This document shows positions 3,459 to 64,000 of a stretch of 64,000 nt of DNA, in pieces (position 1 is the first letter of the stretch; every line of letters starts with the position of its first letter). This DNA comes from Gammaproteobacteria bacterium (GTDB lineage Bacteria > Pseudomonadota > Gammaproteobacteria > Steroidobacterales > UBA11654). The position numbers and the translations under genes are program-made. The notes under the pieces were generated by a model. The model saw only the letters and a program-made list of their open reading frames with translations, did no database searches and was not told where the DNA came from. Where the stretch lies: NCBI GenBank assembly GCA_002691465.1, contig NZHP01000036.1, positions 20,116 to 84,115 on the forward strand, in the 5' to 3' direction.

Positions 3459-6164
3459 TCACTGCGAAATCATTCCGTGACATTTTTTGTATTTTTTACC
3501 TGAACCACATGGACATGGTTCATTCCGTCCAATCTTGTCTTGACCTCTGATAAATGTCTTTGTATCACTCTTCTTTTGTCCCGAATCTGAGGGCTTAAAT
3601 GCTGACCCTTGATTATGTGATAATCTAACACTATCCTTCTTTTGTGACTGTAGATTAACCGATTCAGCATCCTCTTCACCCCTAAATCTAGCTTTTGCCA
3701 ATATCCCAATGGCATTGGTCTTCAACTGATCCATCATGAAAGAAAACATCTCAAATGACTCCCTCTTGTATTCTTGCTTTGGATTTTTTTGGGCATAACC
3801 TCTGAGATGAATGCCCTGACGAAGATGATCCATTGATGCCAAATGCTCTCTCCATTGCATGTCCAGCTGCTGAATCATTATGGCTTTTTCAATCTCTCTC
3901 ATTGGACGCTGGCCTATTGCATTTTCTTTAATACTGTAGTTCTTTTTAAACTCTTGATGTACAACATTCCAAACATTGTCCTCATTGATAGTTTCGTCTC
4001 TTTCTATAATGCTTTCCAAGTCAATATCAATCATGTAGTCATTCAGGAGAGCTTGTTGCAAGCCGTCTAGATCCCATGTTTCTTCCATTGATTCAGGCTC
4101 TATATACTGACTAACCAAATCTTGGATCACTTCCTCGCTAATACCATCAATCATCTCACCTATACTTTCAGCATCTAAAATATCCTTCCTCAACTGATAA
4201 ATTACACTTCTCTGATCATTGGCTACATCATCATATTCCAATAAGTTTTTTCGAATATCGAAGTTGTGAGACTCGACTTTTGTTTGCGCTCTCTCAATTT
4301 GTTTAGTTAGAAGATTGCTCTCGATAGCCTCTTCTTCTTCCATGCCAACTCTGGATAACATTGTTTGTGTTTTCTGAGGATCGCCAAATATTCTCAATAA
4401 ATCGTCGTCCAAGGACAAATAGAATCTGCTCGAACCAGGATCGCCCTGCCTACCAGATCGGCCTCTCAATTGATTGTCGATTCTTCTAGACTCATGACGC
4501 TCTGTGCCAATGATATGCAATCCGCCAGCATCAATAACTTCTTGGTGTCTTTCAGACCATTCTTTTCTAATTTGATCAATATGATCTTTGGAAATACCGT
4601 CACCGTGTGACTTTATCTCTGCATCTAAATTCCCACCGAGAACAATATCTGTTCCTCGGCCCGCCATATTTGTTGCGATGGTCACGGCACCTGGTTTTCC
4701 AGCCTGCGCAATAATCATAGATTCTTTTTTATGTTGTTTTGCATTGAGAACTTCGTGCTTAATTTTTTCTTTCTGCAGAAGTTTTGAAATAAATTCTGAA
4801 TTCTCAATGGACGCTGTTCCCAATAAAACTGGCTGTCCTATCTCTTGCTTCTCTTTGATATCAGTAATGATATTCCTAAATTTACCATCTTGATTTAGAT
4901 AGACAAGATCAGGCATATCTTTACGAATCATTGGCTCATGTGTTGGTATAACGACAACCTCTAATCCATAGATTTGCTGAAACTCAAATGCCTCTGTATC
5001 AGCTGTTCCTGTCATACCAGATAATGTGTTGTATAGTCTAAAATAGTTTTGAAAAGTAATAGAAGCAATGGTCTGATTTTCTTCCTTAATTCTTAGATTT
5101 TCCTTTGCTTCAACTGCTTGATGTAAACCATCAGACCATCTTCTTCCAGCCATTGTCCGGCCTGTAAACTCATCGACGATAATAACTTCACCTTCTTTTA
5201 CAATGTAATCAACATCTTTTTGAAACAGCTTATGAGCCCTAATGGCTGCATTGATATGATGCATCAAACGAATATTTTGTGGATCGTATAAACTTTCCCC
5301 AGTTTTAAGTAAACCCATCCCGTTTAGAATTCTCTCAACACTCGAATGCCCCAATTCTGTGAGATAAATCTGTTTTGTTTTTTCATCAACTGTGAAATCT
5401 TTTGTATCTTCTTCATCAATTGCTTCTTCCAACTTGGGCACAATTGAATTCATTCTCTGATATAGCTCTGTACTATCATCTGCTCTGCCAGAAATGATTA
5501 GGGGAGTTCTTGCTTCATCAATTAATATTGAGTCTACTTCGTCTACAATCGCAAACCCTAAAGACCCTTGAGATTGATTCTCCTTCTCAAAAGCAAGATT
5601 GTCTCTTAAGTAATCAAAACCGAATTCATTGTTTGTGCCATAGGTTATATTGCAATCATATGATTCCTTTCTTTCTCTCGGGTTTTGTTCTGACTTAATA
5701 CATCCAACGGTAAGTCCTAAAAATTCATAGATGGGTTTCATCCATGCAGCATCTCTTTCTGCAAGATATTCATTGACTGTGACGATATGAACAGACTCTC
5801 CTGAAATCGAATTGAGATATGCCGGTAATGTTGAAACGAGTGTCTTGCCCTCTCCTGTTTTCATCTCAGCGATTTTTCCCTGATGAAGCGTTATCCCTCC
5901 AATCATTTGTGCATCATAATGTCTAAGGCCTAATGTTCTTATGGATGCTTCTCTTACAACAGCGAATGCTTCTGGGAGTATTTCATCCAGATCATTATGT
6001 TTTTCATATTTAGACTTTAACTCTTCCGTCTTAGCTAATATTTCTTGATCTGAGAGACTCTTTAAATGATCCTCAAAAAGATTGATCTCATCTACAATCT
6101 TTGAATAATCGGCCAATAGCCTATCATTGCGACTACCGAATATCTTTTTGAATAATTTTTTCAA
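3459..6164 (-). CDS. secA: Preprotein translocase ATPase SecA
   Basis: [29 protein letters not shown]-terminal [13 protein letters not shown]; TTG start. Confidence 0.98.
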
Positions 6165-6281
6165 TTGAAAGCCTTCTTTAAATTCTCCATGAGTAAATTA
6201 ATCCCCATAGAATTATTAGGCTGATATTATACTTCTAAGAAAAATAATTTTGCCCAATAGTTCACTTTCGACAAATTAATC

Positions 6282-6569
6282 ATGAAGCATATATCAGAGA
6301 TTATAAGAGAAGATTTAGGGTTGAATAGGAAAAATTCAAGCCTCCTCCATAAAAAAACAAAAATATATAAGCATCTTATAGAGAGCCTAAAAGATAAACC
6401 TTGCATAATTGAAAATGCTTATCAAAAGGAAGAAACACTTTATATAGAGTGTAATAGTGCTGAAGAAACAGATGCCTTGAGATATGAAGAAAGAAATATT
6501 AAGAAAATATTATCTAAAATAAATGTCTTTCCAGACAAGATTAAATTCAGAACAAAGGTTGGGAATTAA
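6282..6569 (+). CDS. Small basic protein, probable divergent DciA/DUF721 family
   Basis: Opposite-strand position between lpxC and secA is the usual DUF721/dciA slot; LYIEC.SAE..DALRY..RNI resembles the family motif; size fits a truncated form. Confidence 0.55.
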   Translation: MKHISEIIREDLGLNRKNSSLLHKKTKIYKHLIESLKDKPCIIENAYQKEETLYIECNSAEETDALRYEERNIKKILSKINVFPDKIKFRTKVGN

Positions 6570-7480
6570 GTTTTACCCAATGCAGCTGTCCAATATGATA
6601 TTGGAATTTCCTTTATGTCCTCTTCCTCTACTTCTTCCCAAGCTGAGGAATCAGCGTAGAGTTTCCTGATTAACTTATTATTCAGGTCATGGCCAGATTT
6701 ATAACCATAATATTCACCGACCAAGATATGGCCCATGAGATATAAATCTCCAATAGCATCTAAAATTTTATGTCTAACAAACTCATCCTCAAACCTGAGT
6801 CCATCTTTATTGATGATTGTGTAATCATCGAGGACAATGGCATTATCCAAGCTTCCGCCTAATGCTAGATTATTTGATCTCAATGATTCGATGTCTCTCA
6901 AAAATCCAAATGTTCTGGCCCTTGAAATATGCTCTAGAAAATTCATAGTGGAAAAATCAAAAGTAAAATGAGTTAACTCGTTCTGAATCATTGGGTGCTC
7001 AAATTCAATATCAAATGTCAGGCGGTAACCATCGAATGGTCTAAACTCTGCAAATTTACCATCTTCTTCTACTCTTATATTCTTTTTTATTCTGAGGAAC
7101 TTCTTGGCTGCTAATTGTTCTTCAATGCCCGCTGACTCTATGAGAAGAATGAAAGATGCTGCACTTCCATCCATAATTGGTATCTCGGGGCCATGAAGAT
7201 CAATGTATAGATTATCAATACCAAGTCCCGCCAATGCAGAGAGTAAATGCTCAATAGTCATGACTGAAGTATCATTCTGAGATATTGTGGTTCCAAGATT
7301 TGTATCGGTTACGTTCTCAGAAATAGCATGAACTTCCTTTACCGGAATGGTATCCATTCTCCTGAACCTTATTCCAGAGTTCTCAGAAGCGGGTCGCAAT
7401 GTCATTTGTACCTTTTTGCCGCTGTGCAAGCCAACGCCTGATGTCTCTATGGTTTTTGCTATAGTTCTTTGATGTAACAT
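6566..7480 (-). CDS. lpxC: UDP-3-O-acyl-GlcNAc deacetylase
   Basis: GVGLHSG, TIEHLLSAL, EIPIMDGSA, ISRARTFGF, HKILDAIGDL, SGH. Confidence 0.97.
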   Translation of the reverse strand: MLHQRTIAKTIETSGVGLHSGKKVQMTLRPASENSGIRFRRMDTIPVKEVHAISENVTDTNLGTTISQNDTSVMTIEHLLSALAGLGIDNLYIDLHGPEIPIMDGSAASFILLIESAGIEEQLAAKKFLRIKKNIRVEEDGKFAEFRPFDGYRLTFDIEFEHPMIQNELTHFTFDFSTMNFLEHISRARTFGFLRDIESLRSNNLALGGSLDNAIVLDDYTIINKDGLRFEDEFVRHKILDAIGDLYLMGHILVGEYYGYKSGHDLNNKLIRKLYADSSAWEEVEEEDIKEIPISYWTAALGKT

Positions 7481-7557: not shown

Positions 7558-8790
7558 TTATAGATTTGAAGAAAACCAATTTTGTATTTTTTGGAATAAA
7601 GGTGCTGAGGATTTTTGTTTTACCAAATCAGCTGGCTTAGATTTATATTTTTCGAGAGCATAGAGCAAAAGTCCTGCGCCAGTAGCATTTTCAGGTCCAT
7701 TAATGGATTCAAATGCTCCACTCATCGGTTTGGGATAACCTAATCTAACATCACAGCCAAAAACAGCCTCGGCCAATTCTACAGCGCCATCTAATTTAGA
7801 GGCGCCACCAGTTAGAATGACCCCTGCCCTTAAGCTCTCAAGACTAATCTTACCCACTTCTGTATTAATCACTTCAAATATTTCCTCATACCGTTGCTCG
7901 ACAACCGAAGCCAACACCTTTCTGTCAGTTTTTCTTGCTTCTCGATCACCAACACTCGGAACATCGATTAACTTATCCGTGCCGTTTAGTTTTGAGAGTG
8001 TCGCAGCATGCTTAATTTTGATTATTTCAGCTTCGTCAACGGGTGTTTTTAATTCATGAGCTATATCTTTTGTGACATGATCACCACCAACAGGAATGAC
8101 CTTTGTGGTTATAATCTGACCATCCTTAAAAATTGCAATATCAGTGGTTCCACCACCGATATCAATCAAACAAGCGCCCAATTCTTTTTCGTCTTGCGAT
8201 AGAACGGACATACTTGATGCAAGCGGCTCAAGGACAACTTCTTGGATATCAAGGTCGCAATGATAGAGTGACTTTACAATGTTTTCCTCGGCTGTTCTCG
8301 AAATAGTTACAATGTGAACATCAGCTTCTAGTCTGATTCCTGACATGCCTATAGGTTCTGAAATTCCATCTTGCCCATCAATAACAAAATCTTTCGGAAG
8401 CACATGCAGAATCCTCTCCTCAGATGGAATCTTCATGGCAATGGATGCATCAACTGCTCCATCAATATCTTCTTGTGATACTTCTCCCTCATTGATGCGA
8501 ACAAATCCATGACCATCATAACTTCTGACATGGCTGCCAGCTATGCCTGCAAAAACTGTATTAATATCACATTCTGCAATTCTTTCTGCTTGCTTGATTG
8601 CTTTTCCAATGGAATCCACGGTAGATTCAATGTTGACCACTACACCCTTCTTTAATCCTCGAGAAGGCTCTGTTCCTACTCCAATAATTTTTAGTTCATT
8701 ATCACCGTTGATTTCTGCAATCAATGCTACGATCTTGGATGTTCCAATATCCACAGATGCGATGATTTCACTTGAGCTACTTCTTACCAT
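7558..8790 (-). CDS. ftsA: Cell division protein FtsA
   Basis: DIGTSKI, GLKKGVVVNI, IDIGGGTTD, LTGGAS. Confidence 0.97.
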   Translation of the reverse strand: MVRSSSSEIIASVDIGTSKIVALIAEINGDNELKIIGVGTEPSRGLKKGVVVNIESTVDSIGKAIKQAERIAECDINTVFAGIAGSHVRSYDGHGFVRINEGEVSQEDIDGAVDASIAMKIPSEERILHVLPKDFVIDGQDGISEPIGMSGIRLEADVHIVTISRTAEENIVKSLYHCDLDIQEVVLEPLASSMSVLSQDEKELGACLIDIGGGTTDIAIFKDGQIITTKVIPVGGDHVTKDIAHELKTPVDEAEIIKIKHAATLSKLNGTDKLIDVPSVGDREARKTDRKVLASVVEQRYEEIFEVINTEVGKISLESLRAGVILTGGASKLDGAVELAEAVFGCDVRLGYPKPMSGAFESINGPENATGAGLLLYALEKYKSKPADLVKQKSSAPLFQKIQNWFSSNL

Positions 8791-19777: not shown

Positions 19778-20617
19778 CTATTGATTTTTAATCTTTAGCG
19801 CTCGATCATAAATTTTTGACTTACTGGATTTAGATACCTTATTGGCAATTTCAACAGCTTTCTTAAGAGATAGGTCACTCATGAGAATGCTCAAGATTGT
19901 ATCAAGCTCCTCATTGATAATTTCTTCTCTAGAAGAACCCTGAACAACAACCGTAAACTCTCCTTTTATTTTCTCTTTATTATTCCTAAAATACTGGGAG
20001 ATATCAGTCAATGTTTCGCCAATAAATGACTCGTGCATCTTCGTGATTTCTTTGCAGACTACAGCGGATCTATTGCCTCCAAAAACATTGATCATATCTT
20101 CTATGGAAGATTGGATTCTATGAACGGATTCATAGAAAATCAGTGTTTCTTCTTTATGATTCAATTTTTTGAGTTCATTAATTCTTTTATTAGCAGTTCT
20201 AGGCAAAAAACCCTGAAAAGTAAATCGATCGGAAGGCAGGCCTGATGATGTGATTGCAGCTATTAGTGCACAACAGCCAGGGATAGGCTCAACTCTGATA
20301 TTATTCTCTCTTGCATGCTTAATAAATTTATATCCAGGGTCACTAATTAGTGGCGTTCCAGCATCTGAAACAAGTGCAATGTTTTTTCCCTCTTTTAGTT
20401 CAGAAATAATTTTTGGGGCTTTCCTGTCCTCGTTGATTTGATTAAAAGATTGCAAAGATGATTTTGTTTTTACTGCATGATGCTTTAAAAGCTTAGATGT
20501 GACTCTTGTATCTTCGGTCAGAATGCTATCTACACTATTCAATACATCTATGGCACGAATTGTAATATCGTTAATGTTACCTATTGGTGTAGAAACAAGA
20601 TAAAGAGTGCCTGTCAT
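19778..20617 (-). CDS. rsmI: 16S rRNA C1402 2'-O-methyltransferase
   Basis: LYLVSTPIGN, EDTR, LVSDAGTPLISDPG, FYES, EITKMHE. Confidence 0.96.
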   Translation of the reverse strand: MTGTLYLVSTPIGNINDITIRAIDVLNSVDSILTEDTRVTSKLLKHHAVKTKSSLQSFNQINEDRKAPKIISELKEGKNIALVSDAGTPLISDPGYKFIKHARENNIRVEPIPGCCALIAAITSSGLPSDRFTFQGFLPRTANKRINELKKLNHKEETLIFYESVHRIQSSIEDMINVFGGNRSAVVCKEITKMHESFIGETLTDISQYFRNNKEKIKGEFTVVVQGSSREEIINEELDTILSILMSDLSLKKAVEIANKVSKSSKSKIYDRALKIKNQ

Positions 20618-55033: not shown

Positions 55034-55396
55034 ATGAAAATGGAAACTTATATAGTCACTATTTATGCCAAAGAAGATCATGCTTCGGATGTGCAAGAAT
55101 ATTATCAGGACTTGCAAAATATATATGAAAAAGCTCCTGGTTTTATTTCAAGAAGAATTTTCAGGGCGAAAAATGGAGCAATGGCAAAAGCCGTCAGAGC
55201 CACTTACTCGGAAGAAGAGCTCGCCAATATTCCCGAGGAAGATCATGATCATGGAGAACATTTTGTCATGATTGAGGAATGGGAGAGCATTCAAGACAGA
55301 ATAAATTTTGGAAGGAGTATGAGCAAGGAACATCATATGAAGGTGATCCCTTACTTATTACCAAATCACTCTCATGAATTTTATGAAGCGCTTTAA
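55034..55396 (+). CDS. ABM (dimeric alpha/beta barrel) monooxygenase-like protein
   Basis: APGFISRRIFR...FVMIEEWES pattern; SD GAGGA. Confidence 0.55.
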   Translation: MKMETYIVTIYAKEDHASDVQEYYQDLQNIYEKAPGFISRRIFRAKNGAMAKAVRATYSEEELANIPEEDHDHGEHFVMIEEWESIQDRINFGRSMSKEHHMKVIPYLLPNHSHEFYEAL

Positions 55397-55734
55397 GCTA
55401 AGATATTGTCTATTTTCTTTGCACAAATAAAATCATTTTCAGACAATCCACCAATCGCATGGGTTGTATAGAGAACAGTACAGGATCCATACTTCACTGT
55501 AAGGTCTGGATGATGATCCTCAGACTCTGCAATCCAAGCCACAGCATTCACAAATGAAATGGTCTTGTTATAACCATCAAACTTGAATTCTTTTGAAATC
55601 GACTTGAAATCATCTGCTATTGACCATTCGGGATCAATTGCTTTTGCAATTTGCTTAGCCGCATCCTCATCAAGCGGATCAACTCCACCCTCGCAGGGTA
55701 CACAGTGTTTTTTTTCTAATTCTTCAATACTCAT
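55393..55734 (-). CDS. phhB: Pterin-4a-carbinolamine dehydratase
   Basis: CVPCEGG, EDHHPD, TTHAIGGLSENDFICA. Confidence 0.92.
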   Translation of the reverse strand: MSIEELEKKHCVPCEGGVDPLDEDAAKQIAKAIDPEWSIADDFKSISKEFKFDGYNKTISFVNAVAWIAESEDHHPDLTVKYGSCTVLYTTHAIGGLSENDFICAKKIDNILA

Positions 55735-55744
55735 TGTTCATCTC

Positions 55745-56722
55745 CTATAAAGTTGGCAAAGCTACAAATGTGCCGCCATTTTGTTCTGAAAGTGTTCGCA
55801 TCAAATGTGCAAATTTTGCGCCGTTTGATGTTCCTGTTTGAGTTGGAAAGCCAATCCCATGTATTCTTACCAATCGATTACCAAATCGATCAGCTTTGTT
55901 GATTTGAGCAATATAACGACAAACAGCCTCAACAGAACCTCGTGAAAAATCATCTCCAAAAACATATATGCTAATCTTTCGATCAGGGGTATAAAAAGTA
56001 TTGATGGCTTCAGTAATCCCCTCTACAGGGCTTGAATCACTTGGCGGATTCCAAAACCTGAGGGTCTGTGTGATGTTTCTCCTAATTTCTCTTGAATCGG
56101 GTATCCATTTGCCAGCATAAGATGAAAACATATAGTCACCTTCATCATTTAGAACCTGTATGCCTTTGATCTCAGGATATACTGCCAAAGTCTCAGAAAC
56201 TTTTTCAATAACTAAATTCCATGGTCCTTGGAACATGCTTCCGGATGTATCAATTACAAAAATAACATACTCACTGTCAACTGGGATTCCGCCCACAGCA
56301 CTATCATCAAGTGGATCGTAGTCCACCAATAACTTCTTCATTTCCTCCGTGAGTTGTTGTCTAGCCGACAATAAATTGTTGAGCATTCCATCCGACTCTT
56401 CTGCCATTGATTGACTCGCCTTGAATTCAGCCTCCAACGAAGAAATGTCTCCACTGAGCTTATTTTTTCTTTCGCTGTTTTCAGAAATCTGCTCTTCTAA
56501 ATCCAGCATCTCTGTATTCAGAACCGTTGATTCACCCCTTAGTTCATTGAGTTGCCTCTCAAGCTCGACAACAAGCTCCTCCATATTCACCTTACTTTCC
56601 TCGATACTTATAGGTTCGTATATTTTAGTAATCACTAAAAGAAGAATTACTGCGCCAAAGCCACAACAAACCACGTCTAAAAAAGACAAATTAAAGGTTT
56701 CCATGTTTCTACGCTTTCTCAT
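55745..56722 (-). CDS. Membrane-anchored coiled-coil VWA protein (ExbD-like N-terminal TM)
   Basis: RKRR..FNLSFLDVVCCGFGAVILL, coiled coil, MIDAS DTSGS; ATG 56722 overlaps the upstream TAA. Confidence 0.8.
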   Translation of the reverse strand: MRKRRNMETFNLSFLDVVCCGFGAVILLLVITKIYEPISIEESKVNMEELVVELERQLNELRGESTVLNTEMLDLEEQISENSERKNKLSGDISSLEAEFKASQSMAEESDGMLNNLLSARQQLTEEMKKLLVDYDPLDDSAVGGIPVDSEYVIFVIDTSGSMFQGPWNLVIEKVSETLAVYPEIKGIQVLNDEGDYMFSSYAGKWIPDSREIRRNITQTLRFWNPPSDSSPVEGITEAINTFYTPDRKISIYVFGDDFSRGSVEAVCRYIAQINKADRFGNRLVRIHGIGFPTQTGTSNGAKFAHLMRTLSEQNGGTFVALPTL

Positions 56723-57813
56723 TATGGCCAATCACTCGCTGGCGCCATAAAGCTTCCCCTTGATCTTATTGCGAGACGCCAATATGCCTCGGCTGCGAAA
56801 GGGTCACCGTCGATTGGAAATAAAAGAACATTCACTGGAACCGGTGGCAGTTCTCTCAAGGCTTGCTCAAAAAAACTCAATCTTTGTTCAGGTCTGATCA
56901 TCTCCCGAATTGGCTTTCTCTTTCCTTGAGTTGGAAGGCCATCAGTAATCAGGAAAATATTATCGGGCCTTGGTGATAGTTGATTGATCTGACTGAATGC
57001 ATTCACAAGGCTTGTTCCCTTATCAGGAACGACTGATTTCAAATCTTGAATAGCAGAGTCAACCTCTGTTCCATCTTTGACCTCAATCCAATCTCCGTCT
57101 GAGCCAGTAATGATGGTTTCTGCATCTTCATTGAAAGCATAAATTTGAAATTTAGTCCCGGGCTTGAGTCTTGTGGTCAACCAATCAACGCTATTCACAA
57201 CCTGTCTCCATTTGGGTGCCTTAACTTTCATTTGATCTGACATATTTCGATAACGTATGACATTGACATAAGTCCTGCCGAGCATACTAGTGGAAGAATC
57301 AATCAGAAAAAGAACGTGATCCCCTCCGAGTTTCAATTCTGTTAGGTATTGACGATCGCCATCTCCATCAAAGCTTCTCAATGCGTCTCCTGGATTGCTA
57401 CTGGCTCTTTCCATCTGAGACATCATTCGTTTATTCGCTTCCTCCAACTGTTTCACATCAGATTGAAGCTGATTGATATCGGCGACAGAGGCAACTGAAT
57501 TATTTTCTAGAAACTCTATTTCTCTTAGAAGATCCTCAATCTTCTTAGCCAAGTCATTGACACTGCCCTGTATGATTACATTCTCGGCATCCATTTGATC
57601 GATTGTATTTTTAAGGACTACAAGTTTCTTCTGTTCGTCAAAGATTCTCTCTTCTAAAAGTTGACTTTCGGCTTGAAGCTCCACATTTGCCTGCTCGCTT
57701 CTTGTCTTTGATTGAGTGTTTATGATCATAAAAAATAGTATCACCGCACCAAATCCACATGAGATCACATCTAAAAACGAGAGATTGAATACGTTGAACC
57801 GTCTTCTAGCCAT
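56722..57813 (-). CDS. Membrane-anchored coiled-coil VWA protein (ExbD-like N-terminal TM)
   Basis: RRR..FNLSFLDVISCGFGAVILF, coiled coil, MIDAS DSSTS...GT...TDG. Confidence 0.8.
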   Translation of the reverse strand: MARRRFNVFNLSFLDVISCGFGAVILFFMIINTQSKTRSEQANVELQAESQLLEERIFDEQKKLVVLKNTIDQMDAENVIIQGSVNDLAKKIEDLLREIEFLENNSVASVADINQLQSDVKQLEEANKRMMSQMERASSNPGDALRSFDGDGDRQYLTELKLGGDHVLFLIDSSTSMLGRTYVNVIRYRNMSDQMKVKAPKWRQVVNSVDWLTTRLKPGTKFQIYAFNEDAETIITGSDGDWIEVKDGTEVDSAIQDLKSVVPDKGTSLVNAFSQINQLSPRPDNIFLITDGLPTQGKRKPIREMIRPEQRLSFFEQALRELPPVPVNVLLFPIDGDPFAAEAYWRLAIRSRGSFMAPASDWP

Positions 57814-57824
57814 AAATCAGGGAA

Positions 57825-58625
57825 TCATTCACCTTTGAGATGCGTGATCAGATTTTCATCGCAGTAGGTTTCTGTTTCAAAGATTTGTCTTTCTTGAAGC
57901 AGCTGAAGTTGATGTACCATAAACATGATGACAATGCTGATCAGCAAGGCAATGAAGGTTGAATTAAAAGCAACACCCAAATTCTGTGTAACACCACTGA
58001 TGTCTCCGTCCACAGCCCTATGCGCCAATGAAAGTGCAGCTCCAATTCCTCTTACAGTGCCGATGAACCCGATTGAAGGGATTGCCCAAGCAATGTATCT
58101 GATCATTGAAAGTTCTGATTCTAATCTTTCAGCTTCAGACTCTACCATCGTGTGAGTGGTGGTCGATACATCTTGAACATTCTTAGTTGTGTTAAAGCGT
58201 TTCAGTCCATTGATCAATGTTCTGGTCAAAAATAGATCTTGCTTTGTTTCATCCAATCCTTCTAATTGACGAAGATAGTCAGTGGCAGACGTTGGGTTGA
58301 TGCTCTCTCCTACTCGTATTGGAATCAAGTCTTCTCCTAGTAAACGCCTTTCATTGATCGAGGCATTCGCTTTAATTGCCATGATTGCAAAAGCCCAAAG
58401 CATTAGAATAAAACACGCCTCCTGCTCAAAGTCTCTGACAATGACATAGAACGACCTATCTGGCACATAATTGATGTCTTGTTCGATCATCATTTGTTGC
58501 TCTGCGATGATTGCCTTTGCCTCAGGTCTTATCAAGGAAACATAGGTCGCATGAACCAATATTATGGAAACGATCAAGGCAAGTGCTTGATATAAAAATT
58601 CCTTCGATAAATTACTTCCATTCAT
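57825..58625 (-). CDS. MotA/TolQ/ExbB proton channel family protein
   Basis: AIPSIGFIGTVRGI and LGVAFNSTFIAL TM motifs plus N-terminal TMs. Confidence 0.88.
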   Translation of the reverse strand: MNGSNLSKEFLYQALALIVSIILVHATYVSLIRPEAKAIIAEQQMMIEQDINYVPDRSFYVIVRDFEQEACFILMLWAFAIMAIKANASINERRLLGEDLIPIRVGESINPTSATDYLRQLEGLDETKQDLFLTRTLINGLKRFNTTKNVQDVSTTTHTMVESEAERLESELSMIRYIAWAIPSIGFIGTVRGIGAALSLAHRAVDGDISGVTQNLGVAFNSTFIALLISIVIMFMVHQLQLLQERQIFETETYCDENLITHLKGE

Positions 58626-58634
58626 TAATTGCTC

Positions 58635-58877
58635 CTAAATATCAGATGGAAAGCTCACTGCAACATCTGCAGACAATGGCTCTGATGGTACAAATTCTTC
58701 CAATGATTCTTCTTCGTACGCCTCTTGAATCTTTGCCAATTCCTTTTCAAGCTCTCTATCAATTTCCTCTTGTGATTTTGCCTCGCTTTCTAATTCTTGT
58801 GCCCCTGATGAAGTGATACCAAATAATAGTGAGGATCCTATGATCACAAAAAGAAACGATTTAATTGTTGTTTTCAT
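58635..58877 (-). CDS. Small exported acidic protein
   Basis: ATG 58877 gives a signal peptide (MKTTIKSFLFVIIGSSLLFGITSSGA), an acidic helix and C-terminal FVPSEPLSADVAVSFPSDI; overlaps the upstream gene. Confidence 0.65.
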   Translation of the reverse strand: MKTTIKSFLFVIIGSSLLFGITSSGAQELESEAKSQEEIDRELEKELAKIQEAYEEESLEEFVPSEPLSADVAVSFPSDI

Positions 58878-61344
58878 CTTTTTCATTGTCCACATCAGTA
58901 TACCTTGCGATTCTGAATCCAACATCCAATCTTCCTTGCGTTCCATAATCTCTGAAAGCAAAACGAAGCTTTGTGAGAGATGAATCTCTCCAACTTGATC
59001 CTTTGATTACTCTTGCGGTTCCTTCAGACGGACCTGAGGGATCATTTTCCACCAATCGGAGTTGACGCGTTGGAACAGCATAATAATCAGAGACCCACTC
59101 AGCCACATTGCCTCCGAGATCATAAATTCCTAACAAATTTGGATAAAATCGTCCTGAAGGTGCAGTGACTGGATAACCGTCCCAGTAATCACTGAGTACA
59201 TTTGTCAAAAGACTTTCTGTTGATTCATCCGCATAATTTCCACTTTCTTCAACGGGAGGCATGCTGTCGCCCCATGGATATCTTTGCTCGCCTGCCCCAC
59301 CATTGTATCTTGAAACCCATTCCCATTCGGCTTCTGTCGGCAATCTGTACCCATTCGTCACTGGCTTTTTGAGCTTATATTGCCCATCAACATTCTCATA
59401 AGCAGGCATCAAAGATTCCTGCTGACTTAACCAATTGCAATAAGCTGCTGCATCAGACCAACTGACCATCACAGTTGGATGCATTCCATTGGAAAGCTCT
59501 CTGAACATTTCAGCACCGGATGTGTGCTTTGGTTTGAAAGCTCTGAACTCATTGTTCGTCACTTCCTTTGTTCCAATATAAAAAGGCTTGGTGATCTCAA
59601 CCAATCTTTCATTCTCGTTTGACAACCTTCCTTGGGAGCGTCTGGGCGTTCCCATGATAAAAGAACCGGGTAAGATCAATTTCATTTCTTGTGATTGTGA
59701 GGTCATCAAAGTCTTTGGAATCGCAGCCAAAACCGCTTGCTCCTCGGTCAGTAGATTTACTTCAATTTTCTGTGGGTAATTCGGATTAGGGGTCATCTTA
59801 ATTTCTTGGCTGACCAAACCATCTTTCTTGACTTGCAGCAATTGTTGTTCGCTTATCATTTCAATATCAAAAGGAATCACGCCAATCAGATCACCCGCAC
59901 GATAAATCTTTGCTCCATCAGTGCCAATAAAGGATACTTGGCCAAAAATTGCTTGGAGTGAATACTCATAAACTTCCCGTTCTTTACCTTCTGAGGACAA
60001 GCCCTCAATGGTATCGAGATTAACGCGTTTATTGATATCTTTATAACCGGGTTTTGAAACTATCAACTCATGATCGACAAGAGGTTCAAGCATGATTTCA
60101 ATCGGAGTTAAACCTCTATACAAAGAATTGATATTGACCGATGCACCTTCCGGCGTAGTGACTATATTTAATGGTATATCGAGTCGAGAAAGCGTTAATG
60201 AGTCGAGCGAGATAGATTGCTGAGCAACAATATCCAATTCGATAGGAAAATCTTTATATCCTGATTTTTTGAGTGATAGATTATTTTTACCTTGTATCAA
60301 CTGAATATTGGATGGAGTAATGCCTAATTTTATATCGCCGTTAAAAATGCTTGCGCCTTCAGGTTCAGAGATTACGCTTACATCTGCCCATGCAGGCTCA
60401 AGATCAAATGAGTATTCTTGTGTCTCACTCTTTCCTTCAACAAAGATTTTCTTCTTGACTGGAAAATATTTATCGAATCGAAGTTCGATTTCCCTCTCTC
60501 CAGCATTAAGCAATGGACCTTCCAGAATGAGGGTCTTAATACAATTATCTGATTTATTCTCGCAGGATTCAGATGAAAACCTCGATCCATCAATGAAAAG
60601 GTCAAATTCATCATAAAAATCTCCAAAATCTGGATCTGTAATCAATTTAATTTGGCCAGGAAGCCTTCTTAATTCGAAGTCAATGTCCTGTGAGTCACCG
60701 TCATCTATATTAATGACTTCATCATATTTGATGAAATAACCAGGAGCTTTGATTTCAATTGCATAACTACCGCTCCTTAGCAAATACCGCCCTCCAATAT
60801 TTGCTTTTGGAAACAATCCACCGCTTATAGATACCGTGACTTCATCGCTAATGAGGGTTTTATCTAATTGATCCAAAACATCAATCTTGACTGCTTTTGC
60901 TGTGAAAAAGTAAAAGGCAAAATAAATGATTAGAAGCGAGACGCAAGCTCCGATGTATCGCAAAGCTTTATTGTCAAATATGCTGTCTGATTGTCTTTTT
61001 TCAAATAAGGTAGGCTGTTCTTCGCTGATGTCATTGACCGAGAGCAGAAGGTCATTGCCGTCATGATTAAATTCGATAATTGCATTATTGATATGTATCT
61101 CATCTCCAGTCTCAATCCAATGGCTTCCCTTCAATCTCTCCCCATTCATCAAAACTTCAATGGATTGATTGGTAATTTGCAGTAGGTATTTATCGCCTAT
61201 CCGATCAATGGTCGCAGCCAAACCTTGAGCAAGCGATCCTGATATCAGAACATCAGAATTGAGATCAGTACCAATCCTTATAGGGAAATTATCTTGCTCA
61301 ATCGTTTTAGATTGATTGCCATTTTGAATAATAATTTTGCTCAT
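58861..61344 (-). CDS. FHA-like / TM / PEGA-repeat / FGE-sulfatase (SUMF1-like) domain protein
   Basis: N-terminal IRIGT...NGE...GDEI FHA-like fold, one TM, PEGA repeats (SEPEGASI..G.TP; TTPEGASV..G.TP), C-terminal EVTN..F, RLPTEAEWE, GNVAEW, GFRIAR. Confidence 0.85.
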   Translation of the reverse strand: MSKIIIQNGNQSKTIEQDNFPIRIGTDLNSDVLISGSLAQGLAATIDRIGDKYLLQITNQSIEVLMNGERLKGSHWIETGDEIHINNAIIEFNHDGNDLLLSVNDISEEQPTLFEKRQSDSIFDNKALRYIGACVSLLIIYFAFYFFTAKAVKIDVLDQLDKTLISDEVTVSISGGLFPKANIGGRYLLRSGSYAIEIKAPGYFIKYDEVINIDDGDSQDIDFELRRLPGQIKLITDPDFGDFYDEFDLFIDGSRFSSESCENKSDNCIKTLILEGPLLNAGEREIELRFDKYFPVKKKIFVEGKSETQEYSFDLEPAWADVSVISEPEGASIFNGDIKLGITPSNIQLIQGKNNLSLKKSGYKDFPIELDIVAQQSISLDSLTLSRLDIPLNIVTTPEGASVNINSLYRGLTPIEIMLEPLVDHELIVSKPGYKDINKRVNLDTIEGLSSEGKEREVYEYSLQAIFGQVSFIGTDGAKIYRAGDLIGVIPFDIEMISEQQLLQVKKDGLVSQEIKMTPNPNYPQKIEVNLLTEEQAVLAAIPKTLMTSQSQEMKLILPGSFIMGTPRRSQGRLSNENERLVEITKPFYIGTKEVTNNEFRAFKPKHTSGAEMFRELSNGMHPTVMVSWSDAAAYCNWLSQQESLMPAYENVDGQYKLKKPVTNGYRLPTEAEWEWVSRYNGGAGEQRYPWGDSMPPVEESGNYADESTESLLTNVLSDYWDGYPVTAPSGRFYPNLLGIYDLGGNVAEWVSDYYAVPTRQLRLVENDPSGPSEGTARVIKGSSWRDSSLTKLRFAFRDYGTQGRLDVGFRIARYTDVDNEKDENNN

Positions 61345-62822
61345 ATTTTCTTATTGCAAACAATTCTGATTCTTTGGTTCTGCTGATTCGGCGCTACTCT
61401 GAATCTTATGGTTTCATCTTTAAAGCCTCTTCGACTACCTCTAGCAGTATAAATTCCTGGCCTCAAGGAAACTATTCTTTGCAAAAAAGTGCCCATTTGA
61501 TCGACTTTAAAGATTGTTACCTCGGTCAGCTCATCCGATTCAAATATGACATCAATTGGAATCAATGCAACTTGGATCAAAGCATCTAACTTTTGAATAG
61601 ATTCTTGCAATTTGGGTCCGATTCGCTCGATCGACCTCGCTGTGTCTAATATTGCTTGAGCTTGTCCCAGAACCTTATTGTCATTATAGGAGTCGCTTCT
61701 GGTTATGATGGATTTCATTTCAGAGGCAAGCAAAATCCTGGATTCAACTCTACTAAGACTCTCTTTGACCTCCTCAATATTTGGATCAATTACAAGAATG
61801 TCTTCATAAAAGCCCTTCGCTTGCTTCCATTCCTCATTGACTTCTGCGATCAAGCCTTTGTACTTGAGTGATTTTGTGAGACTAGCAATTCTTTTTAAAT
61901 TCAGCTCATCAAGCGCCTGTTTAGCCTCTTGTGAGTTTGGCCGAATTAATAAAGATTGATTAAACAAGTCCTCGGCTTCCTCAAAATTCTCTTCATTTAA
62001 ATATTGATATCCCTTTGAGATTGATTCCTGGAATATCTCTTCTTCAAATGATTTTTTGGATCGGTTGAGTCCATTCTTTGCGGGTTCCCAATTTGAATCA
62101 ATTGACAGAGCATCTTCAAATGATTGAATGGCAAGCTCATAGTTTCCCATGTCAAATTCAATTTGACCTTTTTGCGTCCTCTCTAAGACTTGATCAAGCT
62201 TTAGGGCGCGATCCAAACCCTCTTTGGCTTCTAAATTGCTTCCATCAATGGCCAGGGCAATTTCATAACTAGCAATCGCATCGTCCTTATTGCCATCCAG
62301 GATTGATGCCTTTCCTGATTCAAGTGCATTGGATAAAACATTCGGTATAGAGATCTCCATGTCTGATAGTTTTTGAAGAGCTTGTCGATATTGATCTGCA
62401 GCAATATCATACTTCTGCTCAAGGAATGCTGAATCGCCCTCTTGTTGTGCAATGAGTACGTCTTCCCACTCTCTCATTCCCCAAAAAAGAATGCCCTTAA
62501 GCTTTAAGGACTCAATCTTTATGAGTAGTTCAGAAAGCAGTGCTTCGGCAATTGGTTTCTGAGCGAGTATTTCTTGATTTGGAATGAGGATTGGATTTTC
62601 GTCTATCTCTTGGGTCGGCATATCCTCGTTGTCATCTTGAACAATTGAAGGAAGAATAAAAACAACAAGAACCAATAAAAAAGTTAGACCAAACAGGACT
62701 CCAGCTCCTTTTCGAAAACTGACCGACCTTGACCGCTCTTTCTCTAGTTTCTGCTGATATAAGGTTTTTTCATCAGATTTTACTGATGCATCAGTGGTTC
62801 TTTGATCAGTCGACTCACTCAT
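61341..62822 (-). CDS. Membrane-anchored TPR protein with C-terminal PEGA-like beta domain
   Basis: One N-terminal TM, repeated A..YE.AL.ID..N.EA TPR units, C-terminal LRPGIYTARGSRRGFKD. Confidence 0.75.
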   Translation of the reverse strand: MSESTDQRTTDASVKSDEKTLYQQKLEKERSRSVSFRKGAGVLFGLTFLLVLVVFILPSIVQDDNEDMPTQEIDENPILIPNQEILAQKPIAEALLSELLIKIESLKLKGILFWGMREWEDVLIAQQEGDSAFLEQKYDIAADQYRQALQKLSDMEISIPNVLSNALESGKASILDGNKDDAIASYEIALAIDGSNLEAKEGLDRALKLDQVLERTQKGQIEFDMGNYELAIQSFEDALSIDSNWEPAKNGLNRSKKSFEEEIFQESISKGYQYLNEENFEEAEDLFNQSLLIRPNSQEAKQALDELNLKRIASLTKSLKYKGLIAEVNEEWKQAKGFYEDILVIDPNIEEVKESLSRVESRILLASEMKSIITRSDSYNDNKVLGQAQAILDTARSIERIGPKLQESIQKLDALIQVALIPIDVIFESDELTEVTIFKVDQMGTFLQRIVSLRPGIYTARGSRRGFKDETIRFRVAPNQQNQRIRIVCNKKI

Positions 62823-62831
62823 GAGTTTTGA

Positions 62832-64000
62832 TTATTCAGCCTGAGCCTGAGGAATGCTGAAACCTGTCTCGTCAATGTAAATTTCTTTGAGAAGCCTTCG
62901 CCACTCTTGAAACTTTTCCTCGGCGCTACCAGATAATCGAATTGTTTGTCCTTCCAATTCGATAACCAGCGGTTGCGCTTGGGCATCAAAGTCTGCTCCG
63001 GATTCTTTTAATGATTCCTGATAAATCTTTGCTTCAGAAGCCTTTGAGAAGCCGCTTCTCATTGCTTCCATTCCGCCGTAAATGGCCATTTGTCTAGCCG
63101 TACTGCTCGCTCTGCTGTCCCCATCCGTAGCCAAAGCGCCTGCCAATGCCACAGCCCCCAATATTTTTCTGGTTCTGGCAGATCTTTGGAGTTCCTCATA
63201 GGTAATCATGTCTTCCCTAGAAAGCCTTCTCCAATCTTCGTAAGGCTGCGATAAGTTTTCATAAAGTTGACCATAATACTCATTCAAAGTATCGAGCAGC
63301 AAGAATTCTCTCTCTTGCACCTCGAGTATTCTTTGCATGATCTCGTCATCTTCAGAAGGAAGACGTTCCAGCGAATAAACATTCTTCTTATTTTTGGAAA
63401 TGTAATCATCGTAAACGGGTATCAGCTCTGAAGCAAAACGTATTTCTCCAGTTTGAGATAGTCGAATGAGCTCGTCTCTGGCCTTGGATTGTTTGATTTG
63501 CAAGAGATCATTGGCGATCTTATTAAAGATATTTTGATATGGGTCTTGTGTGATATCTCTTCGTTTGCTGTAAGAGCTCTTGGCAATATTTGACTTGTAT
63601 GTTTTATTGACCCATTGAGTTCCAACAATATCCCATACTCCGATTTTTAATTCCACATCAAGACCATCGGATTTTTCAATTCTACCAACAACGATTAGAT
63701 CAATGGCTTTTGATCTCTCGGGAAGAACCCACACACCACCCCAGTGACCAGTGCTCTCCAAAGTCTTTTTTAGATGGTATGGCATATATCTAGCCTCAGC
63801 CTTTCTGATTTCAGGAAAAATCATCGGATTCTCCTTTTCAGGTACATTCGGATCAAAGAGCATGATCCCTATATCGAGCAATTCTTCGAATGGGATTTCG
63901 GTTTGAGCGATATCAAGCTGAACTTTCTCGTACTTAATTGTCTTTGCCTCTGTTTGGTGACTTCCAATGAAGAGCATCAAAGAGAGGAATGAAAGTGTCT
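62832..64000 (-). CDS. Exported hypothetical protein (5' end beyond window)
   Basis: Frame stays open to the window edge (TLSFLSLMLFIGSHQTEA signal-like); internal Gly/Ala-rich segment ILGAVALAGALA; 9 bp from the TPR gene. Confidence 0.7.
   Translation of the reverse strand, partial: TLSFLSLMLFIGSHQTEAKTIKYEKVQLDIAQTEIPFEELLDIGIMLFDPNVPEKENPMIFPEIRKAEARYMPYHLKKTLESTGHWGGVWVLPERSKAIDLIVVGRIEKSDGLDVELKIGVWDIVGTQWVNKTYKSNIAKSSYSKRRDITQDPYQNIFNKIANDLLQIKQSKARDELIRLSQTGEIRFASELIPVYDDYISKNKKNVYSLERLPSEDDEIMQRILEVQEREFLLLDTLNEYYGQLYENLSQPYEDWRRLSREDMITYEELQRSARTRKILGAVALAGALATDGDSRASSTARQMAIYGGMEAMRSGFSKASEAKIYQESLKESGADFDAQAQPLVIELEGQTIRLSGSAEEKFQEWRRLLKEIYIDETGFSIPQAQAE

Follow-up and report, generated by a model that had tools for sequence, protein, structure and literature searches.

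How an ion-driven envelope motor might pass on its force when its axle ends in two different VWA domains is the question raised by a locus within a 64,000-nucleotide stretch of DNA (the window; positions 20,116 to 84,115 of contig NZHP01000036.1, assembly GCA_002691465.1) from a Gammaproteobacteria bacterium of the lineage UBA11654. Two paralogous genes, B1 and B2, close a co-directional envelope operon of eight genes with a conserved order: a lipoprotein, an exported 394-residue protein, a TPR protein, a PEGA-FGE protein, a small open reading frame (ORF), the channel subunit A, B1 and B2 (Table 1). An earlier note on this DNA had described the pair as a possible heterodimeric, asymmetric motor subunit. 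The explanation that we favour, with moderate confidence, is that B1 and B2 would form an unequal axle within a pentamer of A, and that the B1 head, and not that of B2, is predicted to grip the C-terminus of the operon's small peptide at its metal site.

Both ORFs were confirmed on the minus strand, and each opens, as had been described, with a basic patch followed by a near-identical transmembrane segment. The anchors after the basic patch read FNLSFLDVISCGFGAVIL in B1 and FNLSFLDVVCCGFGAVIL in B2, with FNLSFLDV(I/V)(S/C)CGFGAVIL common to the two paralogues. Hydropathy gives a single strong hydrophobic segment per protein (residues 13-31 of B1 and 14-32 of B2), and the mean net charge, taken over 33 homologues each of B1 and B2, is about +3 before this segment and about -2 after it, a bias that points to an N-in, C-out orientation. 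The membrane Asp of each anchor, to which the earlier note had attached its proposal, is invariant in 101 of 101 aligned B1 rows and 47 of 47 B2 rows; alignment A1 is weighted towards close relatives, with 35 rows from diverse loci. Upstream, the stop codon of A is 11 bases from the start of B1, and A is likely, from its sequence, to have four membrane helices. Residues T190, R192, N221, T223, D65, E67 and C71 of A are invariant in a 34-row alignment; T190 sits in G-F-I-G-T-V, and T190 and T223 occupy what we take to be the positions of the pore Thr residues in ExbB/TolQ. A search of 128 loci for exbD-like genes with a three-sequence ExbD profile, the sensitivity of which is limited, found none, and in the gene maps of this operon every slot is assigned, with none left for tolR/exbD. 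No OmpA-like peptidoglycan-binding domain follows the anchor, a VWA fold standing in its place, and no ZorB match was obtained.

A Cys shared by the two membrane segments had also been pointed out. It lies four residues after the Asp (Cys19 of B1, Cys20 of B2) and is present in all rows of both alignments, but it is not essential, because Ser or Ala replaces it in five loci: both paralogues have Ser at L050-L052, which are all three of the loci examined from one out-of-class family, and B1 has Ala at the two metagenome loci L095 and L125. Given these substitutions, an obligate Cys-Cys bond is not supported. C71 of A is retained in L050-L052. The long coiled coil that was said to follow the anchor is borne out by the AlphaFold2 (AF2) model of B2 (pLDDT 78, with the VWA part mostly near 90), in which residues 40-122 form an unbroken helix, whereas searches of Pfam and profile libraries with these regions gave only weak matches to coiled-coil families.

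B1 and B2 are paralogous over their whole length (profile-profile probability 99.9%; 29% across 245 columns by BLASTP, E 9e-16). A quick IQ-TREE search, which omitted seven near-duplicate or cut loci, split them 41/41 with a value of 100 in the SH-like approximate likelihood ratio test (SH-aLRT), and they are two old sister groups that always co-occur. The ORF list gives B2 328 residues from a TTG at 56731; more likely, translation starts at 56722, with an ATG that overlaps the stop codon of B1 (TAATG), because most close homologues have 325 residues and open with MR(K/R)RR. Of the first 43 loci, 42 have B2 (a contig end cuts the other) and 40 have A. A further 85 loci include 61 with room for B2, which in every one of them comes directly after B1, and 52 that could be tested for A, which is present in 51. 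That B1 and B2 instead form separate homodimeric motors (A5B1x2 and A5B2x2), each with its own job, is in our view an improbable reading of this pairing. With their near-identical anchors either protein could fill the pore, and a review leaves the stoichiometry of the Myxococcus proteins AglQ/AglS open (PMC9389320); yet neither gene stands alone at any of those 61 loci, the TAATG overlap couples their translation, and in the complex model described below the peptide touches both heads with an expected error of less than 8 Å, which implies a defined B1-B2 arrangement, not scored as such.

A pair of this kind has been predicted before. Williams-Jones et al. (2025) predicted heterologous TPH-vWA pairs beside tolQ-like genes, within TolQ-like pentamers, and the published AF3 5:2 model of this family places both Asp residues in the Thr ring of the pentamer (PMC12204202). 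The present locus has every TPH-vWA feature that can be tested here, namely a heterologous membrane-tethered vWA pair, an adjacent tolQ-like gene, no tolR/exbD, a membrane Asp and no SHLS motif (PMC12204202); neither anchor in the window contains a His. Proteins named Idiomarina sp. and Idiomarina loihiensis (P0417, P0459) belong to the B1 family, and Idiomarina is the seed genus of that study (PMC12204202). The invariant Asp, the neighbouring A gene, the lack of an exbD-like gene, the constant pairing and the published model together lend partial support to the asymmetric heterodimer of the earlier note, the core inference of which is probably right, yet had already appeared in print as a prediction. 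Nor is a heterodimeric axle unusual in itself, since AglQ/AglS has been modelled as one (PMC11761067). The published section and legends on TPH-vWA make no mention of a peptide, an asymmetry of metal sites, the Cys, PEGA-FGE or an outer-membrane protein, and the words ‘midas’, ‘pega’, ‘formylglycine’ and ‘heterodimer’ have 0 occurrences in the main text (PMC12204202). A literature search, with most subscription papers outside its reach, returned only this paper on the TPH-vWA family and nothing on the peptide or its pairing with B1. What is added here to the prior prediction is the unequal metal sites and the predicted operon-encoded ligand of B1.

The two heads differ most clearly at the MIDAS, the adhesion site that depends on a metal ion. 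The VWA domain of B1 lies above the Pfam VWA_2 cut-off (E 1.6e-8), and B2 has no VWA match in Pfam; the AF2 model of B2 resembles VWA folds such as those of ITIH, BatB and Rpn10 (Foldseek E 2e-7 to 4e-5, among the 50 matches listed). Searches of PDB sequences with the B1 and B2 profiles returned only coiled-coil noise and weak VWA matches. DxSxS is intact in both proteins, as had been noted (DSSTS, 172-176, in B1; DTSGS, 158-162, in B2), but the full canonical MIDAS is confined to B1. There it comprises D172, S174, S176, T267 and D291, conserved in 100, 101, 101, 93 and 101 of 101 rows, respectively, with position 267 occupied by Thr in 93 rows, Ser in 7 and Ala in 1. A profile-profile alignment places S230 of B2 opposite T267 of B1, and the B2 site (D158, S160, S162, S230, D257) is a variant in which all 47 rows have Ser in place of the Thr, though DxSxS and D257 are intact, and it is likely still metal-competent on sequence grounds. 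In addition, B1 carries a 20-residue insertion right after DxSxS that B2 lacks. In one locus, L029, the MIDAS of B1 (6157-7236) is degenerate, with D172 and T267 both replaced by Ala; its small gene (8542-8766) codes for the only peptide that ends in Met, and no A gene is present in the stretch covered. This copy is possibly a decaying or rewired system.

The protein of the small ORF is the predicted ligand of the B1 MIDAS. Its homologues range from 38 to about 115 residues, all end in P-x-[D/N]-[I/M]-stop, and a signal-like hydrophobic stretch is present in 35/35. Within 600 bases after the PEGA-FGE gene, the terminal motif was found at 39/39 loci and at 52/53 further ones (91/92 testable), compared with 19 of 5000 random windows of 600 bases; close kin are among these loci, and the counts are not independent. 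The pattern used for the 53 further loci also allowed L/V, and the doubtful case, L074, proved on rechecking to have the true motif. The residue before the terminal Ile/Met is Asp, but Asn in 9/85 loci, while the terminal Ile/Met-stop is constant. We rejected a general export signal as the meaning of this motif, since among the ORFs of at least 60 codons in the 84%-complete genome the small gene is its sole bearer. In one clade just 19-29 residues follow the hydrophobic stretch, nearly all of them binding motif. Elsewhere, one small gene (L037:12903-13181) is duplicated internally: it has two signal-like segments, and the first of its two copies of the motif is degenerate. The ESM Atlas returned unnamed clusters only for the peptide and for the 394-residue protein.

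When the B1 head, the B2 head, peptide residues 44-83 and two Mg were modelled together with ESMFold2, the score was 0.89, compared with 0.22 for the best of three controls and 0.00 when B1 was replaced and B2 kept. The score mark is reached by 116/157 solved complexes and 2/215 mismatched pairs, calibration counts that apply only roughly to this job, with its own alignments and with Mg riding along. The runs agree in at least 94% of contacts, and the partners have pLDDT values of at least 76. In the model, F79-I83 of the peptide lie on B1 residues 174-176, 265-267, 295-296, 305-311 and 335-339, the B1-only insertion (179-201) forms part of the interface, and B2 residues 263-268, 306 and 310 also contact the peptide. 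The best residue pairs include I83 with S176/T175 of B1 and D82 with G266 of B1. The terminal carboxylate, rather than the Asp side chain, would be the likelier metal ligand, because the Asp can be Asn whereas the Ile/Met-stop is constant, and because I83 pairs with T175/S176. The model supports, and does not show, binding of the peptide to B1. It makes the earlier proposal, that force passes through metal-dependent adhesion of both heads, look too simple: the metal site of B1 probably holds a dedicated peptide, rather than simply an external adhesion target. Release by signal peptidase may be inferred from the shortest peptides, because a tail of 19-29 residues could not span the roughly 12 nm from the membrane up to the head if the peptide stayed uncleaved.

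Several results weigh against the favoured explanation, and those on the motor side concern how far A and the anchors resemble known subunits. A has no equivalent of what we take to be Glu176 of ExbB, and its profile finds no solved motor subunit in a search of PDB sequences. The anchors had been called ExbD/TolR-like; motif, topology and context agree with that description, but no ExbD, TolR or MotB match was obtained in Pfam, NCBIfam or PDB searches, and the comparison with ExbD is not significant (hhalign probability 1%, P 0.056, with three sequences on the ExbD side). The docking of a 5:1:1 complex in the pore rests on the published AF3 model (PMC12204202). A Zorya-like anti-phage sensor, or an anchored pair of adhesins with no motor, is nevertheless hardly credible. 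PADLOC reports a weak ZorA match for A (E 0.001), and an anchor not detectably related to ExbD would suit a non-motor role; on the other hand, none of the eight operon proteins has a ZorB or effector match in PADLOC, where LmuB is coiled-coil noise only, the gene order is fixed across many families, and a buried invariant Asp beside a PF01618 gene is hard to explain if no ions are coupled.

On the peptide side, covariation between peptide and B1 is not enriched at the modelled interface, with 0 of the top 20 pairs there (2.2 expected) and 8 of the top 100 (10.8 expected), in an underpowered set of 85 loci with an effective number of sequences (Neff) of 56. Conservation is just slightly higher among interface residues (0.58) than elsewhere in the domain (0.53), the peptide docking covered only the B1 and B2 heads among the operon proteins, and the VWA-carboxylate pose may partly have been learned from integrin-type complexes. 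It is conceivable, if unlikely, that motor and heterodimer are as described but that the peptide's partner is A, the TPR protein or the FGE domain, or that it serves B1 as a folding aid only, both heads then being adhesive on an outer-membrane partner, as the earlier note had proposed. Another partner would suit the lack of support for B1 from covariation, and the gene of the peptide comes after the PEGA-FGE gene in every case, also at L028 and L029, where A has moved or is missing. In favour of the TPR protein, acidic C-terminal peptides are often clamped by TPR domains. GltF, a small protein of the Agl-Glt machinery, has moreover been placed by modelling in a crevice of GltC, a TPR protein (PMC11761067). 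What speaks for B1 instead is that the high score is lost when B1 is replaced and that the modelled contacts use its private insertion together with the MIDAS loops.

Table 1. Features of the envelope operon in the window (positions from the first base of the window; all on the minus strand)
Feature	Position	Strand	Description
B1	56722..57813	-	363 aa; membrane helix, coiled coil, VWA head, predicted peptide receptor
B2	55745..56722	-	likely 325 aa from ATG 56722; membrane helix, coiled coil, VWA head
Codon of B1 Asp15	57769..57771	-	invariant membrane Asp
Codon of B2 Asp16	56675..56677	-	invariant membrane Asp
A	57825..58625	-	266 aa; MotA/TolQ/ExbB-family channel subunit, Pfam PF01618 E 3.4e-15
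Small protein	58635..58886	-	83 aa; signal-like hydrophobic N-terminus, variable linker, conserved C-terminus FVPSEPLSADVAVSFPSDI-stop
PEGA-FGE protein	58861..61344	-	827 aa; weak FHA-like N-terminus, membrane helix, PEGA repeats, FGE fold (GldK/GldJ-like)
TPR protein	61341..62822	-	493 aa; membrane-anchored
Exported protein	62832..64000	-	394 aa; start 16 bases past the window edge; FlgT/PelC/TolB-N/CsgG-type domain and helical hairpin

The remaining envelope proteins of the operon offer candidates for the load. The PEGA-FGE protein matches PF03781 (FGE/sulfatase-modifying factor, E 1.4e-42) and PF08308 (E 5e-27), with Yop-YscD_cpl at E 0.03; its match to the GldK model has E 3.7e-33 but falls below the cut-off. 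Its FGE-fold domain (58861-59700) is likely a binding module, because it has no Cys in what is presumably the region of the catalytic cysteines of the formylglycine-generating enzyme. In two relatives the TPR protein carries an N-terminal Ser/Thr kinase domain (L016:5790-8273, L024:11122-13548), and FHA-type domains occur on both the PEGA-FGE proteins and the Hsp70-like proteins described below. The first gene of the operon, just beyond the window edge, codes for a lipoprotein with a long low-complexity linker.

For the 394-residue protein, structural matches include FlgT (Z 11.0, r.m.s.d. (root-mean-square deviation) 4.8, 170 residues aligned), PelC (Z 10.1, r.m.s.d. 2.3, 110 aligned) and CsgG (Z 9.1); the Z-scores for FlgT, PelC, TolB-N and CsgG, from 11.0 to 9.1, are tied within about 1-2 units, and Foldseek agrees. 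Its profile has no match in a search of PDB sequences, and its model contains a long helical hairpin, hydrophobic at its tip. A lipobox-like Cys is found in many relatives, and the proteins of this clade have a signal-like N-terminus that lacks it. An outer-membrane ring of this protein that receives the heads is plausible from the model, a shared fold showing no function. The fold, which is that of ring-forming outer-membrane lipoproteins, and the hairpin would also suit a dedicated exporter or importer, in which the peptide is cargo that B1 recognises by the C-terminal motif and that then passes through the ring. We regard this as very improbable: the shortest peptides, being nearly all motif, leave no payload, and no other ORF of the 84%-complete source genome ends in the motif.

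The operon is kept in a small-genome marine lineage (a 1.4 Mb assembly, 84% complete). B1 was found in 36/400 scored genomes of the same class (32/347 high-quality), a tally that counts the source genome and one unpublished genome, with one genome not scorable; a B1 profile search across the phylum found it in 19/401 genomes, of which 15 belong to a single out-of-class family. Named relatives include Woeseia, Alteromonas, Pseudoalteromonas, Idiomarina and Thalassomonas, and cultured carrier genera include Alteromonas, Pseudoalteromonas and Thalassomonas. A profile of the anchor only matches 2391 clusters at 50% identity, many of them fragments. A search of a plasmid collection gave no match. 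Between A and B1, 46/52 loci have a protein of the Hsp70/actin fold, often with a C-terminal FHA domain (for instance L020:12425-13783 and L016:11927-13291); none is present in this operon, and a profile search found none in the 84%-complete genome. Two loci, L022 and L029, seemed to have B1-B2 fusions of about 675 residues, which we dismissed as ORF-calling artefacts in GC-rich DNA. One genome (G191) has two divergent copies of the whole operon, L030 and L040. An unannotated pair of lipoprotein genes (F12, F13) lies downstream of B2 in L019, L023, L025, L027 and L030, and in the source genome the pair is found on another contig (G000:C21, near 62 kb). A gene for pterin-4a-carbinolamine dehydratase (55393-55734), 10 bases after B2 in this clade and in two relatives of the same order, is probably a passenger. 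The source genome also contains two ordinary ExbB/ExbD-type clusters with a long ExbB-like gene (L010:2509-3314 on G000:C1; L013:384-3299 on G000:C33), one of which has two tandem exbD paralogues of 133 residues each, 48% identical, possibly another heterodimeric axle.

Promoter-like sites are not enriched in the locus (16 observed, 24.8 in shuffles). RNA runs contain only small shares of its sequence words (at most 0.19); parts of the operon are covered by contigs from four RNA libraries of four studies, including two that span the small gene and A, and these contigs do not show expression, DNA carry-over being uncontrolled.

Taken together, the favoured explanation would work as follows. Its basis in sequence is the invariant Asp of each anchor, the invariant pore Thr of A, the fixed gene order and the two old paralogue groups. 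A complex A5:B1:B2 would let ions flow past the two Asp residues and so turn the pentamer relative to the axle, by analogy with MotAB, ExbBD and TolQR and with the published AF3 model. The coiled-coil stalk, predicted by AF2 at about 83 residues (about 12 nm), would lift the heads towards the outer membrane, where the FPSDI end of the peptide would sit on the B1 MIDAS and the B1-only insertion, its terminal carboxylate most likely completing the Mg site in the ESMFold2 model. Once released by signal peptidase, the peptide could cap B1 as a latch or cofactor, leaving the variant site of B2, or a composite head, to engage the load. That load would most likely be an outer-membrane complex, in which the FlgT/CsgG-fold protein and the lipoprotein would be joined with the TPR and PEGA-FGE proteins, and the machine would do mechanical work at the outer membrane, whether opening, gating or export.

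Known motors offer partial parallels. With ExbB/ExbD, TolQ/TolR and MotA/MotB the system shares a PF01618 channel with pore Thr and a one-helix partner with a basic cytoplasmic tail and mid-membrane Asp; it differs in having a coiled coil and VWA domain in place of an ExbD or OmpA-like domain, in the probable four helices of A, and in that no TonB/TolA-type partner is recognised in it. GldK and GldN form a ring with the GldLM motor. The GldLM system of Bacteroidetes is likewise a 5:2 motor linked to FGE-fold envelope proteins, but GldL/M are a different family, and here the FGE domain is carried on a PEGA rod anchored in the inner membrane. In the AglR/AglQ/AglS motor of Myxococcus, the two B subunits differ from each other and have been modelled within a single pentamer as a heterodimer, and Agl-Glt includes TPR proteins, an FHA-bearing membrane protein, the small disordered bridging protein GltF and the VWA protein CglB (PMC11761067). 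There, however, the VWA domain is on a surface lipoprotein and force passes through the TonB-like GltG/J, whereas here it is on the axle (PMC11761067). No sequence homology to Glt proteins was seen, no search having been aimed at them. In integrin α6β1, a carboxylate near the C-terminal tail of laminin γ1 completes the MIDAS metal (PMC8241838); the ligand in our case would be a dedicated bacterial micro-protein that offers its terminal carboxylate rather than a side chain.

A broader picture, which we put forward tentatively, is that of a widespread trans-envelope rotary machine with an integrin-like heterodimeric axle head, in which one VWA domain would be latched by a secreted micro-peptide through its C-terminal carboxylate on Mg and the other would engage an outer-membrane ring, so that the peptide operates a clutch on a 5:2 motor that some lineages may have wired to Ser/Thr kinase and FHA signalling. 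The well-studied 5:2 motors all pass force via a peptidoglycan anchor or a TonB/TolA-type side partner; the predicted TPH-vWA-type family would work instead through VWA heads borne on the axle. The gene for the small peptide is tiny and easily missed in annotation, and a ligand of one head encoded in the operon makes what the heads hold a simple binding question. The predicted ligand of B1 would explain why two paralogues are retained and, together with the unequal metal sites, makes the mechanism directly testable.

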